Shown piece after piece: positions 4,591-11,088 of a DNA stretch of 64,000 nt (position 1 is the first letter of the stretch; each line of letters opens with the position of its first letter). Made by a program: the position numbers and the translations under genes. Source of the stretch: Candidatus Uhrbacteria bacterium RIFOXYC2_FULL_47_19 (lineage in GTDB: Bacteria > Patescibacteriota > Patescibacteriia > SG8-24); NCBI GenBank assembly GCA_001791745.1, contig MGFG01000032.1:3775-67774 (forward strand), given 5' to 3'. Below the pieces are notes generated by a model, which did no database searches, was not told the DNA's origin, and saw only the letters and a list, made by a program, of their open reading frames with translations.

Positions 4591-6471
4591 TCAGCCAATC
4601 ATTTCTGGATTACGGTCCACAATATAGCTTTCTGGTAAGTTGGTGAGTGCTTGTTGGATACTTGGTGGGATGTTTATTTCGGTTTTGACTACAACCACGC
4701 TTCTCCATAGTCCATCACGAAATGGACGGCGGTGGCGTAGCGGACCAGCAACGATTCCATGTTCCGAAGCTATCGTCTTTTTAAGTGTGGTGAGTAATTC
4801 TTTTGCTTGTCGTTCAGTTTCGTTCTGATCAGGATTTCTGACAGTAATTGTTAGAAGTGTACCAAATGGAGGATAGGCTGAATTTTGTCTAGCTTCTAGT
4901 TCTGCTGTTACAAAGTCATGTTCGTTCGAGTTGAGTAATTTGATTTTGGTGCCATCTGGATCAAGTGTCTGCATTAGGAGTGATGCATTAGATGAAGCAG
5001 CAATATCTTTAAGTGTTCGAATGGTTCGCCAGGCGTCTTCCATTACACGGAAGCCAGGAAATGTTAGTAGTCCATCTAGATCAGTTACAACTACACAACC
5101 CCAGTCGCTTCGTGAAGGTAGTTCAGCTAGGTCGTGCAGCATTAAACGGGTACCGATAAGTATATCGGATTCATCGATAGTTCTGTCATGCTTCTCATTC
5201 AAGAGATCTGAATCGTAGGCAGCTACTTTATTTTTTGGGAACTCTCTTTGTAGAGCCGTTTCAAGTGACTTAGTACCCAGGCCTATGTTGTGTAAATTAA
5301 CATCGCCACATTTGGGACAGACTATCGGCAGGGTTGAGATGGTAGCGCAGCGTGGGCAGCGTAGATTACCGTTACCAACACCCAGTGCAATGTCGCACCG
5401 CTCACAACGGAACACTAATCGACAACCATTGCAGATTAAGGCTCCAGCTGTGCCGAGGCGGTTATGGTAAACTAGCACCTTTTTCCCTTGATGTAAAGAC
5501 TCGACTGCTCGATCCATAACCACCGGTGATAGTGGATGATCATAACCTTTTGGATTGCCAGTGATATTGATCAACACTGTTTTTGGATCAGAGGTTGGTG
5601 TGGCTAGTCGAGACAATTGATTTTTAGCAGCCAGAGCATACTCTTCTAGACGTGGAGCATGTGATAGATAAGCCAGACTAGCCTTAGACTCGTCTGCTCG
5701 CCAGAGTGCGATTTCTCGGGAGTCGTAACGAGGATTTTGATCATATTGACGTAGATCAGGACTATCAGACTCAAGTACTAAAAACAGACCTGGATTGCGA
5801 ACTGGAGCAAGAGCAGCTAGTCGAGTTCCGATCACAATCGCGATTGGTTCAGCTAGAAGGCGTTTCCAATTAGTACGTAGCTGTGAGTTCGTTAATTTAC
5901 CATGGATTTCCACGACAGGCGGACCATCAGGAAAGGTCAGTGCTTTGTTTAGCCTAGTGATTTCAGTGCTGTGTGGTGTAATTATAATGACACCATGACC
6001 AGAATTAATAGTACTCTTTGTTAGACGTATTGTTTCGGCAATTTTTTCATCAGAATGTCGGTATCTGATCAGCGATCGTTCGGTAGAATTAATCTTCGTC
6101 CCAACGATTTGTTCTGATAATCCTTTAGGGTCGTCGGTTAGTAATTTGGTCTTAGGTGTTCTAGGTAGGAAAGATTTTAGGGCTGTGGCTGGCGAGACCA
6201 AATAATGGTCTGACATTTTTTGCGGCAAATTAAGTAAATCTTCTCCTAGAACATGATAGTCGCCGAATCCGAGTAATTCAACGATTTGTTTATTTTTGAA
6301 CGTTGTGGTTTCGGAAAGTTCAATTACCAATCCATCGACCGGTCGTCCTCGCCAGGGGACGACAACCCATGAGCCGCGCTGCACCAAACCGCGGTACCTT
6401 TCTGGTACCGCGTAATCATACGCTCCTAAGTTTTTTGGTAGGCGGACGGCTGGGATGATTTTAGCGAACAT
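4591..6471 (-). CDS. priA: Primosomal protein N' (PriA) homolog with degenerate helicase ATPase motifs.
   Basis: An N-terminal 3'-DNA-binding-like region. A four-CxxC zinc module (CNGC...CERC...CPRC...CPKC). A C-terminal PriA domain. The Walker A position reads RYRHSDEK instead of GxTGSGKT, and the DExH position reads LVLESD. Confidence 0.75.
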   Translation of the reverse strand: MFAKIIPAVRLPKNLGAYDYAVPERYRGLVQRGSWVVVPWRGRPVDGLVIELSETTTFKNKQIVELLGFGDYHVLGEDLLNLPQKMSDHYLVSPATALKSFLPRTPKTKLLTDDPKGLSEQIVGTKINSTERSLIRYRHSDEKIAETIRLTKSTINSGHGVIIITPHSTEITRLNKALTFPDGPPVVEIHGKLTNSQLRTNWKRLLAEPIAIVIGTRLAALAPVRNPGLFLVLESDSPDLRQYDQNPRYDSREIALWRADESKASLAYLSHAPRLEEYALAAKNQLSRLATPTSDPKTVLINITGNPKGYDHPLSPVVMDRAVESLHQGKKVLVYHNRLGTAGALICNGCRLVFRCERCDIALGVGNGNLRCPRCATISTLPIVCPKCGDVNLHNIGLGTKSLETALQREFPKNKVAAYDSDLLNEKHDRTIDESDILIGTRLMLHDLAELPSRSDWGCVVVTDLDGLLTFPGFRVMEDAWRTIRTLKDIAASSNASLLMQTLDPDGTKIKLLNSNEHDFVTAELEARQNSAYPPFGTLLTITVRNPDQNETERQAKELLTTLKKTIASEHGIVAGPLRHRRPFRDGLWRSVVVVKTEINIPPSIQQALTNLPESYIVDRNPEMIG

Positions 6472-7289: not shown

Positions 7290-7401
7290 ATGGATAATTT
7301 ATACCATTTTAAAAGTCAAAAGACGATTCCTGTCTAGCGATATTAGACTAGATATTATTGGGTGTATGTAACCAATTCCTTGGTTGTACACAGGGGAGTC
7401 T

Positions 7402-7430
7402 TTGACGTTCGGTTTTTGTTCGGGTATGAT
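7402..7430 (+). promoter_or_regulatory. Sigma70-like promoter of lexA: -35 TTGACG (7402-7407), a 17-nt spacer, and -10 TATGAT (7425-7430). The spacer contains a direct repeat GTTCGG-N5-GTTCGG.
   Basis: Read directly from the sequence, about 20-35 nt upstream of the lexA start. Confidence 0.4.
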
Positions 7431-7449: not shown

Positions 7450-8088
7450 GTGTGGATAGATTTTATGAACAGACAAGAAAAATTAACAAAAAAACAACAT
7501 CAGATTCTTGAGTATGTGACCGGATACATCCGGGGGAACGGCTACGCTCCATCCTATCGGGATATAGGTGAAGCGCTTGGCTTGTCCTCGACTGCTACGG
7601 TCCACGAGCATATCAAGAATTTGAAAGAGAAAGGGTGTTTGTCGAGCGGTAATGGTGAAGCACGAGCCTTGGAAGTAGATCCGGAGTTGTCTAGGATTGC
7701 GGTAGCTGTGACCTTACCACTCCTAGGTTTGATAACGGCTGGGGAGCCGATTGAGGCGGTAGAGGGTAAAGAGACCATGGATATTCCAGCAACACTAGTC
7801 AGAAAGCCGGATGATACTTTCGTCTTACGGGTAAGAGGGGAGTCAATGAAAGATGATGGTATTTTATCCGGCGATTTAGTGATCGTAGAGAAGAATCCTG
7901 CACCTCGTGATGGAGATACAGTAGTGGCTCTATTGGATAATGAGTATGCAACACTGAAGCGTTTCTATCGAGAGAAGGGAAGGGTGAGACTGCAGCCGGC
8001 GAATAGTTCTATGGAACCAATTTACGTAAAGGAATTGGCGGTTCAGGGTGTAGTTAGAGCGGTGATTAGAGATTTTCGGTCGGGTTAA
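7450..8088 (+). CDS. lexA: LexA repressor (S24 peptidase). The ORF-track start at 7450 is GTG, and the ATG at 7465 is the likelier start.
   Basis: An N-terminal winged HTH (YAPSYRDIGEALGLSSTATVHEHIKNL), the cleavage region, and the S24 catalytic motifs VRGESM...LKRF. Confidence 0.85.
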   Translation: MWIDFMNRQEKLTKKQHQILEYVTGYIRGNGYAPSYRDIGEALGLSSTATVHEHIKNLKEKGCLSSGNGEARALEVDPELSRIAVAVTLPLLGLITAGEPIEAVEGKETMDIPATLVRKPDDTFVLRVRGESMKDDGILSGDLVIVEKNPAPRDGDTVVALLDNEYATLKRFYREKGRVRLQPANSSMEPIYVKELAVQGVVRAVIRDFRSG

Positions 8089-8137
8089 ACTTCAGGCTAT
8101 CACCCTTGTTTCATTAAAGGTCGTTTTAATAAACAAA

Positions 8138-8176
8138 AACGTCACGCCCGTGGGAGAGTGGCGCGACGTTTTCCCG
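8138..8176 (+). terminator. Candidate lexA terminator hairpin.
   Basis: An 11-bp stem AACGTCACGCC / GGCGCGACGTT with one mismatch and a 12-nt loop, followed by TTTTCCC. Confidence 0.4.
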
Positions 8177-8382
8177 GGACGAGCCTTTTGGTTCGACCCG
8201 ATCCACGCACTGTGGCACCATTATTTTAGCATGGTGCCGTAACTTAGCCAAGTTATGGTTAGGAGGAAAGTTAGAGCGATGTGGCGTCAATATTTCGGCG
8301 CCGTCATCGATGTAATAATTGCTCGCTAGAATGCGAGTCGCGAGGTCGCCGCCGAATATTGAGCAGGCCTCAACAATGCGGC
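8177..8382 (+). ncRNA. Candidate structured small RNA or structured 3' UTR in the lexA-clpB convergent spacer. Strand is uncertain.
   Basis: Several perfect hairpins read directly: GGCACCAT-N9-ATGGTGCC (8213-8237), CTCGC-tagaat-GCGAG nested inside TTCGGCGCCG...CGCCGCCGAA, and TTGAG-caggcc-TCAA. It ends at a strong terminator. No ORF longer than 31 codons. Confidence 0.2.
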
Positions 8383-8421
8383 GAAAACCCCCGGTCTCCT
8401 TTCGGGGGTTTTGTTTTTTTT
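8383..8421. terminator. Strong bidirectional rho-independent terminator, serving clpB on the minus strand and the spacer transcript on the plus strand.
   Basis: ACCCCCG-gtctccttt-CGGGGGT, flanked by AAAA on the 5' side and TTTTGTTTTTTTT on the 3' side. Confidence 0.7.
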
Positions 8422-8436
8422 AAATAAGATTAATGG

Positions 8437-11088
8437 CTAATGGACATTAGTCTTTTTTGAAATTTTGATCGTTAATTCGCTGTTTTTTGCGTCAACCTTA
8501 GCTTGATCGCCGGATTCCAATCGTCCATCGATGATCATCATAGCTAGAGGGTCGAGGATTTCATGTTGAATTACACGTTTGAGTGGTCTGGCTCCGAAGG
8601 ATGGGTCGTATCCTTTTTTAGCGATAAGTTCTCGGGCTATATTGGAGACACTTAATCCAATATGTTGTTCTGCCAATCGAATAGCCACTCGATCGAGTTG
8701 AATCTGTGCTATTTGAGTTATCTCAGTTTCGTTCAGTGATCCAAAGACGATTACTTCGTCCAAACGGTTCAAGAATTCCGGTTTCATTTGATCCTTTAGG
8801 AGTTCTAGTATTTTACTGCGAACCGAGTCTTCTTCATGTACATCGGAATCGGAGAAGCCAAGGTGTCCACGGTGATCAGCTTCGAGTATGGTATCCGAGC
8901 CAATGTTGGAGGTCATGATAATGACTGTATTTTTGAAGTTGACCTTACGTCCTTTAGAGTCAGTTACTCGACCCTCATCCAATATTTGTAGAAAAGTATT
9001 CCAGACATCTGGATGAGCTTTTTCGATCTCGTCCAGTAGAACAACTGAGTATGGACGACGGCGGACTTGTTCGGTTAGTTGGCCACCTTCATCGTGGCCG
9101 ATATAGCCAGGAGGGGATCCAAGCATTCGGGAGACGGTATGTCTTTCGCCATATTCAGACATATCGAGCCTAATCATCGCATTTTCATCATTGAACATGA
9201 ATTCAGCCAGGGCTCGGGCTAATTCGGTTTTTCCCACACCAGTTGGTCCGAGGAAGAGGAAAGATCCAATAGGCCGATTTTCTTCGGCTACACCGGCCCT
9301 AGATCGACGGATGGCACCTGCGACCGCGTGTACAGCCTCCTTTTGTCCAACAACACGCTTTTCTAATTCTTCCTCCATGTTAGCCATTTTTGTCGCCTCC
9401 TCGCGGAGCATTTTAGAGACTGGTATGCCTGTCCAACGAGAGACAACCTTAGCTACGTCCTCCTCATTTACCTCTTCCTTTAGAAAGCGATGTCCGTGTT
9501 GTAGTTCAGCTAATCTTTGAGTAGCTCGATCTAAGTTTTTTTGAGCCTCTGGTATTTCGCGATGTAGTATCTCACCAGCTCGAATCATGCTACGATCATC
9601 GCCACTTCTTTGAGCAATTTCCGCTTCTTGTCTGAGCTCATCTGTGCGTCTGCGACTGGAGCGTATCTCAGCAATAGCCTCTCGTTCATTTTTCCATGAC
9701 AATTCGAGTGAGGAATAGCGTTCATTGAGTTCAGCTAGATCTTTTTCTATCTCTGATAACCGTTCCTTGGAATCATTATCTTCTTCTTTTTCCAGGGCTA
9801 ATTTTTCTAGCTTTAGACGCATTAAACTACGCTTAAGCGCGTCGATTTCCTGTGGCTCGGAGTCAATCTCCATACGTAAAGCCGAAGCAGCTTCATCAAT
9901 TACGTCGACTGCCTTGTCTGGCAAAAAACGGTCTTGGATGTAGCGTGTGGAAAGTTCTACTGTTGTAACTACTGCTGGATCGGTAATGCGAACACCATGA
10001 TGTAGCTCGTAGCGTTCTTTGATACCACGAAGAATGGCGACTGCATCTTCGAAAGACGGTTCAGCTACTGAGACTGGTTGAAAACGGCGTTCGAGTGCTG
10101 CATCCTTTTCGATATATTTTTGATATTCCTTTGGTGTTGTAGCACCGATTGCTCGTAACTCGCCTCGAGCCAAGGCTGGCTTTAACATGTTGGAGGCATC
10201 AAGCGGTGAACCATCACTTGATCCGGCACCGACTAGAGTATGTAATTCGTCAATAAAGAGAATAATTCGTCCAGCTGAATTCTCGATTTCTTTAAGAAGA
10301 GCCTTGAGACGATCCTCAAATTCACCACGAAACTTTGATCCAGCCACTAATGAACCAAGATCCAAAGCTGCAATTTCTTTGTCTTTTAAAAGTTCTGGCA
10401 CATCACCTTGGACAATACGCTGGGCCAAACCTTCAACGATTGCTGTTTTACCAGTACCGGCTTCACCAATTAATACTGGATTATTTTTAGTTCGTCGCGA
10501 TAAGACTTGCATTACTCGACGTATTTCCTCATCACGTCCAATAACTGGATCAAGCTTCTCTTGGCGAGCAAGTTCAGTTAAATTGCGGGAGTATTTTTTT
10601 AGAGCTTGATACTTTTGTTCCGGTTCTGGAGAGTCTACTTTTTGAGAACCTCTAATTTCGACTAAGACCTTCATTACCCCATCATGAACTATTCCAGCTT
10701 CATCGAGCAGAGTCTTAGCTGGAGAGGGGATCTCGAGCAGTGCCAGTAGTAGGTGTTCGGTTGAAATATATTCATCACCGAAACTCTTAGCTTCTTTTTC
10801 AGCCTGACGAAGGACACGAACCGTAGTTGGGTTTAATGCTAGTGGGGCAGTATCGGACGAGGGTTCTTGTTTAGGTAGTCGAGAAATGAGATTTTGTGTT
10901 CGACGGTCCAGATCCGATCGATCGGCCTCTAATTTATCACAAACTGATCCAATAACCCCTTCAGACTGTTCCAATAGTGCAGCTAGGAGATGTAGTGGGT
11001 TTAGCTCCAAGTTGCCGTTCTCAAAAGCTTGAATTTGGGCCGACTCTATGGCCTCGCGAGATTTGGTGGTGAAGTTTTTTGGAAGCAT
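8437..11088 (-). CDS. clpB: ATP-dependent chaperone ClpB.
   Basis: Two AAA+ modules (GEAGTGKT and GPTGVGKT Walker A), a long coiled-coil middle domain, and a Clp N-domain. Confidence 0.9.

Follow-up and report, generated by a model that had tools for sequence, protein, structure and literature searches.

In a 64-kb window of DNA (the whole stretch that was analysed) from the groundwater bacterium Candidatus Uhrbacteria bacterium RIFOXYC2_FULL_47_19, a member of the Candidate Phyla Radiation (CPR; Patescibacteria), we found that the spacer between the convergent genes lexA and clpB on contig MGFG01000032.1 contains an unannotated 24-codon gene on its plus strand and the conserved promoter, fold and terminator of a predicted small RNA (sRNA) on its minus strand. 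Comparison of related loci indicates that the open reading frame (ORF) of the small gene is coding and under selection, and that the strand of the sRNA is conserved together with its promoter, fold and terminator. We lean towards a reading in which the two constitute a two-gene module, with a small protein coupled to the SOS response by read-through from lexA and gated by a cis-antisense RNA. From the sequence we infer the parts of that reading that concern the two transcripts, the co-transcription with lexA, the antisense repression and the action of the peptide.

The LexA protein encoded in the window is identical (100%) to that of Ca. Uhrbacteria bacterium RIFOXYC2_FULL_47_19. Its gene occupies positions 7465–8088 of the plus strand (207 amino acids (aa), PF01726 and PF00717), and clpB lies on the minus strand at 8437–11088. 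An initial annotation of this DNA had described a highly structured spacer of about 250 nt between the two convergent genes and proposed it as a single noncoding element, either a discrete small transcript or a structured 3' untranslated region (UTR). The convergence holds, and the spacer measures 348 nt (8089–8436). Its high degree of structure also holds: the predicted minimum free energy (MFE) of the plus strand is −133.4 kcal/mol versus −102.1 ± 5.4 for shuffled sequences (z −5.85), and the minus strand reaches z −6.18. The public contigs that carry the spacer have zero genes called within it.

Ten contigs encoding an identical LexA have spacers that are 100% identical to that of the window and are uninformative for comparison. 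We therefore assembled 15 different spacer homologues, all but one complete, that accompany LexA proteins ranging from 89% down to 65% identity; these came from a LexA genome scan, nine contig look-ups of LexA homologues and one metagenome scan with the pattern CCACGCACNGTGGCA-N24-32-AGCCAAG, which returned seven loci, including two chance matches in coding regions. All 15 spacers follow lexA, and clpB is convergent wherever the contig extends that far (L099 stops inside the element and L100 just past lexA). Nucleotide identity among the related spacers is 80–67%, about equal to the conservation of the flanking genes.

The 24-codon gene and its peptide family

The small gene (MVRRKVRAMWRQYFGAVIDVIIAR; 8255–8329, plus strand) was recognised by the conservation of its start and stop codons, by its pattern of variation across codon positions and by its proportions of nonsynonymous (pN) and synonymous (pS) differences. 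An ORF beginning at the conserved ATG is present in 14/14 complete homologues; its length is 24 codons in 13 and 26 in the remaining one, L105, and it ends at the same alignment column in TAG, TAA or TGA, all three of which are used. Variable columns at codon positions 1, 2 and 3 number 15, 12 and 23 of 24, respectively. The Nei-Gojobori estimates are 0.72 for pS and 0.25 for pN (ratio 0.35), with pN below pS in 78/78 pairs. Of the two other frames, one contains stops in every sequence, and the second contains stops in 7/13 and has pN above pS. We hold with high confidence, on this comparative evidence, that 8255–8329 encodes a protein kept under purifying selection; the interval cannot be noncoding throughout, as had been assumed.

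The AGGAGG box and 16-codon ORF of the initial annotation are both present (8261–8266, and from an ATG at 8279), and both belong to this gene. The box is not a ribosome-binding site and instead forms codons 3 and 4 (Arg3-Arg4), and the 16-codon ORF is the longer one read in frame from Met9, a residue that is Ile, Ala, Phe or Leu in other species. The alignment places the actual start codon within an invariant TATGG just 5' of the AGGAGG. No Shine-Dalgarno sequence was found 5' of that AUG.

The peptide consensus is M-x-(R/K)-R-(K/R)-(I/V)-(R/K)-A-x-(W/Y/F)-R-Q-(Y/F/L)-x-G-A-x-x-D-(V/I)-(I/V)-x-x-(R/H), in which position 10 (W/Y/F/C), R11, G15 and D19 are nearly invariant. The version encoded in the window carries a charge of +5 and has a hydrophobic C-terminal half. 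Across the family the net charge is +3 to +6, the maximum Kyte-Doolittle value over 15 residues is 0.1–1.4, and there is no hydrophobic stretch of membrane length; TisB, DinQ and IbsC score 2.6–3.2 on the same measure.

Searches of the peptide against Pfam and NCBIfam returned nothing at E ≤ 10 save one spurious 10-residue match, a search against PDB chains gave no match, and 9 of 10 versions of the peptide are absent from the gene calls of a collection of 15 billion proteins. The peptide is a new sequence family. Identity with bTHX or another small ribosomal protein was ruled out by the lack of a profile match and by the hydrophobic C-terminal half. RNase P, which a GGAGGAAAG string had brought to mind, was rejected along with tmRNA and 6S RNA, since none of their models matches and the string is coding; a dedicated tRNA/tmRNA scan was likewise negative. 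At one related locus (L102:3298–3582, minus strand) a gene caller has set a 94-aa ORF across the conserved element; this call is almost certainly spurious and illustrates how annotation can mask the real 24-codon gene.

Two further genomes, one of Falkowbacteria (L083) and one of another patescibacterium (L074), carry a 24-residue ORF 3' of lexA that matches a profile of the family; for L074 the E value is 2e-7 against a hidden Markov model built without it. At neither of these loci is clpB a neighbour of the lexA-linked ORF. Weaker relatives, of the type found in L105 (MSRKQKAIYRR...), follow lexA in L084, L066 and L089. The presence of peptide relatives 3' of lexA where clpB is missing indicates that the conserved linkage is to lexA.

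Between lexA and the 24-residue ORF, the L074 and L083 loci also encode a conserved protein of ~155 aa (MCAGISF..., with Cys at position 2; L074:~2314–2781 and L083:~4760–5235) that has no Pfam match. Its N-terminal cysteine and its position beside lexA are reminiscent, we presume, of SOS-response-associated peptidases.

The predicted minus-strand small RNA

The predicted sRNA (5'-GCCACAGUGCGUGG...ACUCUCCCACG...UUUUUGUUUAUU-3') is ~90 nt long and extends from ~8216 to 8125 on the minus strand; it was delineated from a promoter, a fold with covariation and a U-tail, its start being set 7 nt past the −10 element and its 3' end placed in the U-tail. The promoter is of the sigma-70 type. Its extended −10 element (TGCTAAAAT, 8223–8231) has the form TGnTAnnnT in 15/15 homologues and was picked independently by a simple promoter scan. 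It ends 7 nt before a CCAC-N5-GUGG hairpin in 14/15 sequences and 8 nt before it in L102, and its three inner bases vary freely. The −35 hexamer, TTGGCT (8246–8251), is situated 17 nt from the −10, with sequence and spacing invariant in 11/15; the hexamers of L099 and L103–L105 are weaker.

Three stem-loops are common to 15/15 homologues when each sequence is folded alone. SL1 (CCAC-AGUGC-GUGG, 8203–8215) has a stem of four pairs that never vary in any of the 15. SL2 (8174–8201) is a hairpin in every homologue, formed from wholly different sequence in different lineages (GGGUCGAACC..., ACGGCCGAC..., GUAGUCCCG... and GGCGCGGUU..., for example). SL3 (8136–8172) is an intrinsic terminator, in which a 13-bp stem carries an 11-nt loop (ACUCUCCCACG, 8159–8149) and is followed by UUUUUGUUUAUU; the loop core, UCUCCCAC, is invariant in 15/15.

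Several observations assign this fold to the minus strand. The sRNA region is more stable on that strand than on the plus strand in 15/15 homologues (summed free energies of −651.6 versus −584.2 kcal/mol). In minus orientation, 97.4% of the cells of the SL3 stem alignment are paired across the 15 sequences, compensatory double changes occur in 10 of its 13 pairs (a number reached by 0/500 shuffles), and ~18 cells are G·U pairs that the plus strand would turn into A·C mismatches. Over the first 10 nt past the stem there are on average 8.5 T on the minus strand versus 4.1 on the plus strand, and 8136–8172 qualifies as a Rho-independent terminator on the minus strand. The hairpin that had been read as a terminator of lexA is therefore real, but serves far better in the opposite direction, as the sRNA's own. 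A discrete small transcript, which the initial annotation had suggested, is very probable in the light of this conservation and covariation, although it is placed on the minus strand, is ~90 nt long and lies mostly upstream of the interval first singled out. We consider it very likely that the predicted sRNA is a real transcript unit.

Two simpler accounts of the spacer can be weighed against these results. One holds that it specifies a single noncoding plus-strand RNA of ~250 nt, or a structured lexA 3' UTR, in which the ORF is accidental. The high predicted stability of the plus strand, its strong terminator at 8384–8421 and the existence of some plus-strand-specific pairs would all agree with such an RNA, but it leaves unexplained the codon-position pattern, the pN/pS ratio of 0.35, the excess of pS over pN in every one of the 78 pairs and the preservation of ORF length despite changing stop codons, and constraint in the upstream third of the spacer falls on the minus strand. 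The coding signature and the minus-strand covariation of SL3 largely refute this account, which we consider very improbable. The other dispenses with a dedicated transcript altogether and sees two bidirectional terminators together with protein-binding sites in the DNA, such as the palindrome CCAC-N5-GTGG. Consistent with it, U/A tracts flank both end hairpins on both sides, CCACNNNNNGTGG is invariant, and CTGTGG-type motifs also flank the lexA promoter; the coding signature, the structure-only conservation of SL2 and a textbook extended −10 in 15/15 homologues would nevertheless go unexplained, and we give this idea hardly any credence.

The sRNA is a new sequence family. A covariance model built for it finds a single copy in the window (113.7 bits) and returns only terminator-like noise from 77 other Patescibacteria lexA loci; 18 matches to the sRNA signature on viral contigs were all dismissed as chance, with covariance-model scores of 11–13 bits. 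With no convincing homologue in either set, the family appears specific to this clade. An Rfam 15 scan of the whole window at gathering thresholds, which the initial annotation had proposed as a check, matched no known family, and a permissive scan of the spacer gave only sub-threshold, terminator-driven matches. The rnk_pseudo leader (RF01772) was among the candidates discarded: it scores 38.2 bits at 8318–8420, below its gathering threshold of 55 bits, and shares with the locus a hairpin and, after it, a GC-rich terminator ending in a U-tail, but the match rests on the generic terminator in the 3' UTR of the small ORF and the family is one of Pseudomonas.

Just past the U-tail of the sRNA is a further conserved motif, AAAGGTCG (CGACCUUU on the minus strand; 8116–8123). 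CGACCTTT or a close variant occupies this position in ~12/15 homologues, including the divergent L103 and L105, and the AGGTCG of the motif recurs at 8343–8348 in the 3' UTR of the small ORF.

In several relatives an ORF of ~90 aa (MDISLNEYLKEVCLIDCRYG... or MNSVNDFTKEAFLLDCQFG...) sits between lexA and the sRNA terminator (L097, on the reverse strand; L098:3137–3409; L106:3126–3398, which equals L093; and L107:3193–3465). It has no Pfam match, persists as a degraded remnant in L014 (4640–4780) and is absent from the window. Its intervention after lexA in some members indicates that the conserved element behaves as one movable block. At another locus (L003:331–2049), identical lexA, spacer and clpB sequences are preceded by different upstream genes (ORFs of 299 and 216 aa in place of the LigB-family and PriA genes), which may reflect a strain-level rearrangement or an assembly chimera.

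Proposed transcription from lexA and antisense control

The promoter of lexA (−35 TTGACG at 7402–7407 and −10 TATGAT at 7425–7430, plus strand) contains between its two elements a probable LexA box, GTTCGGTTTTTGTTCGG (7407–7423). The box is a direct repeat, GTTCGG-N5-GTTCGG, and so conforms to GTTC-N7-GTTC, the alphaproteobacterial type of LexA box. Of 16 relatives compared, 15 have it unchanged 5' of lexA, and the sixteenth, L107, is represented by a stretch that ends before the promoter; it is the single match in the 64 kb with up to three mismatches allowed. No LexA box is present in the spacer; any SOS control of the small ORF must consequently come via the lexA promoter.

An inverted pair of DnaA-box-like sequences flanks the same promoter, with TTGTACACA (7384–7392) upstream and TGTGGATAG (7451–7459) ~6–14 nt before the ATG. 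In relatives the pair is nearer to the consensus (TTATCCACA ... TGTGGATAA), and it is conserved in almost all of 16 loci; DnaA or another factor may act on lexA.

No conserved plus-strand promoter was found in the spacer, and the hairpin 3' of lexA has a poor U-tail on the plus strand, making read-through possible. A further indication comes from a plus-strand element, hairpin 3 (GGCACCAU-N9-AUGGUGCC, 8214–8238), which had already been noted at the DNA level as GGCACCAT-N9-ATGGTGCC. This hairpin appears in the MFE fold of 13/15 homologues and shows compensatory changes in 4 of its 8 pairs, and its outer pair (U·G or U-A) is valid on the plus strand only. Its arms straddle the −10 element and start site of the sRNA, with the −10 itself in its loop, so that it could form only in a plus-strand RNA begun further upstream. 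The covariation of hairpin 3, the absence of a promoter in the spacer, the sole LexA box at lexA and the poor plus-strand terminator on the lexA side together suggest that the RNA of the small ORF starts upstream. The small ORF most probably owes its transcription to read-through from the LexA-repressed lexA promoter, which would make it SOS-inducible; its membership of the SOS regulon hinges on this predicted co-transcription.

The start site of the ORF also appears to be folded. A start-codon hairpin, CCGUAACUU-AGCC-AAGUUAUGG (8237–8258, plus strand), contains the AUG and has moderate comparative support: the AUG is at least partly paired, with alternative pairings, in the MFE fold of 11/15 homologues, and inspection by eye indicates that the outer arms (CCrUA/UAUGG) are kept and the inner pairs vary between species.

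Downstream, the stop codon is positioned in the loop of the hairpin CUCGC-UAGAAU-GCGAG (8322–8337, plus strand), reported earlier as CTCGC-N6-GCGAG, which relatives keep with different sequences and for which covariation evidence is weak. The outer stem described around it (TCAATATT/AATATTGA at 8287–8294/8355–8362) is likewise present and extends to 16-nt arms that are 81% complementary; this long-range pairing between ORF and 3' UTR is strong in the window and is not kept in relatives. A block in the 3' UTR, AGGUC(G/A)CCGCCGAA (8343–8356), is conserved in 11 close homologues, and its complement is found twice, in the Gly-Ala codons of the ORF and in a CGGCG further 3'.

The strong bidirectional terminator that the initial annotation had placed at the end of the spacer was confirmed at 8384–8421. 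It qualifies as a Rho-independent terminator on the plus strand, being strong for the ORF transcript (UUUUGUUUUUUUU) and weaker for clpB (UUUUC). Its loop is GUCUCCUUU (8394–8402) in the window and GUCUCCCUC in relatives; the GUCUCCC(U) loop is kept in 9/14 homologues as the stem covaries, and it is L011, L098 and L103–L105 that lack this loop sequence. The loop resembles that of sRNA SL3 (8149–8159) and is complementary to a loop of the ORF leader, GUGGGAGA. The terminator loop and the leader loop could meet, bringing the 5' and 3' parts of the mRNA into contact as happens in hok, although no covariation supports it. The small gene has a structured 3' UTR and a terminator of its own.

The geometry of the two genes is close. 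The −35 of the sRNA promoter (8251–8246) abuts the ATG of the ORF (8255), with transcription directed away from the ORF. The sRNA lies antisense to a stretch 40–130 nt 5' of the ORF and perfectly complementary to a leader running from lexA to the ORF; this complementarity exists only if the ORF mRNA starts 5' of 8216, a condition that hairpin 3 supports.

In the two-gene module that we propose, a constitutive sRNA would pair under normal conditions with the few transcripts that read through from lexA. Pairing would probably begin at the SL3 loop, with UCUCCCAC contacting the complementary leader loop GUGGGAGA. Silencing of the ORF could then follow from cleavage, from transcriptional interference or because an upstream ribosome-loading region is lost. 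DNA damage would let lexA transcription outpace the sRNA, and the peptide would then be produced; it might act as a brake on growth, division or replication, or as some other SOS effector.

Several points weigh against this module. A weak plus-strand −10, TAnCAT (8227–8232), occurs in 11/15 homologues and overlaps the −10 of the sRNA, of whose TGnTA it is the mirror image; a start from it would yield a leader too short to be overlapped by the sRNA. Read-through from lexA is reached by exclusion, no plus-strand promoter having been identified, and the two transcripts, their ends and the translation of the ORF are predictions. The start-codon hairpin shows no strand asymmetry to add to its moderate support. 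The peptide is basic (+3 to +6) and not hydrophobic, unlike the classical membrane toxins of type I systems. Finally, L083 and L074 possess the peptide and lack this sRNA, so the peptide does not strictly need it.

The same two loci would also fit a reading in which sRNA and small gene are independent neighbours whose overlap is meaningless, the gene being regulated separately and the sRNA acting in trans through its C-rich, anti-Shine-Dalgarno-like loop (UCUCCCAC) on GGGAG-type ribosome-binding sites in mRNAs from other parts of the genome. Conservation within the sRNA is highest in loop and hairpin sequences (SL1, and the SL3 loop in 15/15), as expected of a seed acting in trans, and a pure cis-antisense RNA would need no sequence conservation. 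Set against this, sRNA and ORF are neighbours in 15/15 members of the clade, where the promoter of the one abuts the start of the other, and an analogous antisense layout of unrelated sequence occurs in a second lineage (below). No second UCUCCCAC/GTGGGAGA site exists elsewhere in the 64-kb window. We consider independent neighbours fairly unlikely. Complementarity between the sRNA and the translation start of lexA, checked by eye, is not convincing.

Relation to known systems and to a second lineage

The closest parallel to the proposed module is tisB/istR-1 of Escherichia coli, in which control by LexA is joined to an inert structured leader and to an antisense RNA that acts ~100 nt 5' of the start codon (PMC8145889). 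Both loci have a very small ORF (29 aa for tisB, 24 here), LexA-dependent transcription (here proposed) and a long structured leader with a poorly accessible start site (here predicted), and in both a separately promoted antisense RNA has its complement in the leader, far 5' of the start codon, rather than at the ribosome-binding site. They differ in that the peptide described here is basic and not membrane-like, that the sRNA overlaps the leader in cis whereas istR-1 is encoded divergently and shares a short complementary stretch, and that the LexA box does not precede the ORF, which instead lies behind lexA itself. There is no sequence similarity between the two. The dinQ/agrB pair compares in a similar way.

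These likenesses raise the question of whether the locus is a classical type I toxin-antitoxin pair, that is, an addictive or persistence module in which the sRNA is the antitoxin of a membrane-damaging peptide. A small ORF with a putatively occluded start codon, an antisense sRNA with its own promoter and terminator, and an SOS-linked locus, as with tisB, would all suit such a pair; dinQ and symE are SOS-linked loci as well. In contrast to that expectation, the peptide is strongly basic and without a membrane-spanning stretch, and the pair is single-copy, syntenic and vertically conserved beside lexA rather than patchy, multi-copy or carried on mobile DNA, and is absent from viral contigs. 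We regard a classical pair as improbable, and even the narrower notion that the peptide is, strictly speaking, a toxin as improbable to doubtful. The locus would thus resemble SOS-induced type I toxin-antitoxin systems in its logic, and we do not file it as a member because its peptide is not a hydrophobic membrane peptide.

A second point of comparison is provided by small SOS-induced division inhibitors. YneA (Bacillus), SosA (Staphylococcus), ChiZ (Mycobacterium) and DivS (Corynebacterium), all from Gram-positive bacteria, are encoded beside lexA, and SidA of Caulobacter is, like TisB, 29 aa long. The linkage of a small protein gene to lexA is shared with YneA, SosA, ChiZ and DivS, and is found here in several lineages of Patescibacteria. 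Those inhibitors, SidA included, carry a transmembrane or LysM segment and are expressed from LexA-regulated promoters of their own, usually divergent from lexA, and none of them is known to have an antisense RNA. The peptide described here has neither their domains nor their promoter arrangement, and the Pfam, NCBIfam and PDB searches detected no similarity to them.

A comparable layout occurs in a second lineage (the three sequences L066, L089 and L084), where unrelated sequence between lexA and the related small ORF contains a candidate minus-strand sRNA (L066:715–830; L089:4670–4765; L084:4702–4815) with a terminator and a TATAAT or TATACT element. The minus-strand terminator is an invariant GGGGUGAGUUUUGUUUU with G·U pairs, and the TATAAT/TATACT is conserved ~80–100 nt upstream of it. 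Folding energies again favor the minus strand, at −37 to −41 versus −22 to −24 kcal/mol (a difference of 15–19 kcal/mol).

Read together, these observations permit a broader suggestion, which we offer tentatively and hold to be rather less than an even prospect: that in many Patescibacteria the last gene of the lexA operon is an unseen, basic peptide of ~24 residues, a new SOS effector, which in at least two lineages is silenced by independently evolved cis-antisense sRNAs. If this is true, the peptide could act, for example, as a brake on division, replication or translation in tiny symbiotic cells, and the loci would, as far as we know and our searches indicate, be the first cases described in the CPR of a small-protein module under sRNA control. 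Our literature search found no work linking CPR/Patescibacteria to type I toxin-antitoxin systems or antisense sRNAs. These bacteria are uncultivated and have reduced genomes, and to our knowledge almost nothing has been established about their RNA-based regulation and small proteins.

The locus shows that a structured spacer can consist of a protein gene together with an RNA on the opposite strand, which matters for genome scans in which conserved intergenic structure is taken for a single RNA. It also supplies two concrete genes that automatic annotation has missed, one for a peptide family and one for an sRNA family, both tied to the regulator of the DNA damage response, and these suggest a way in which an organism poor in regulators may set a threshold on its SOS output.

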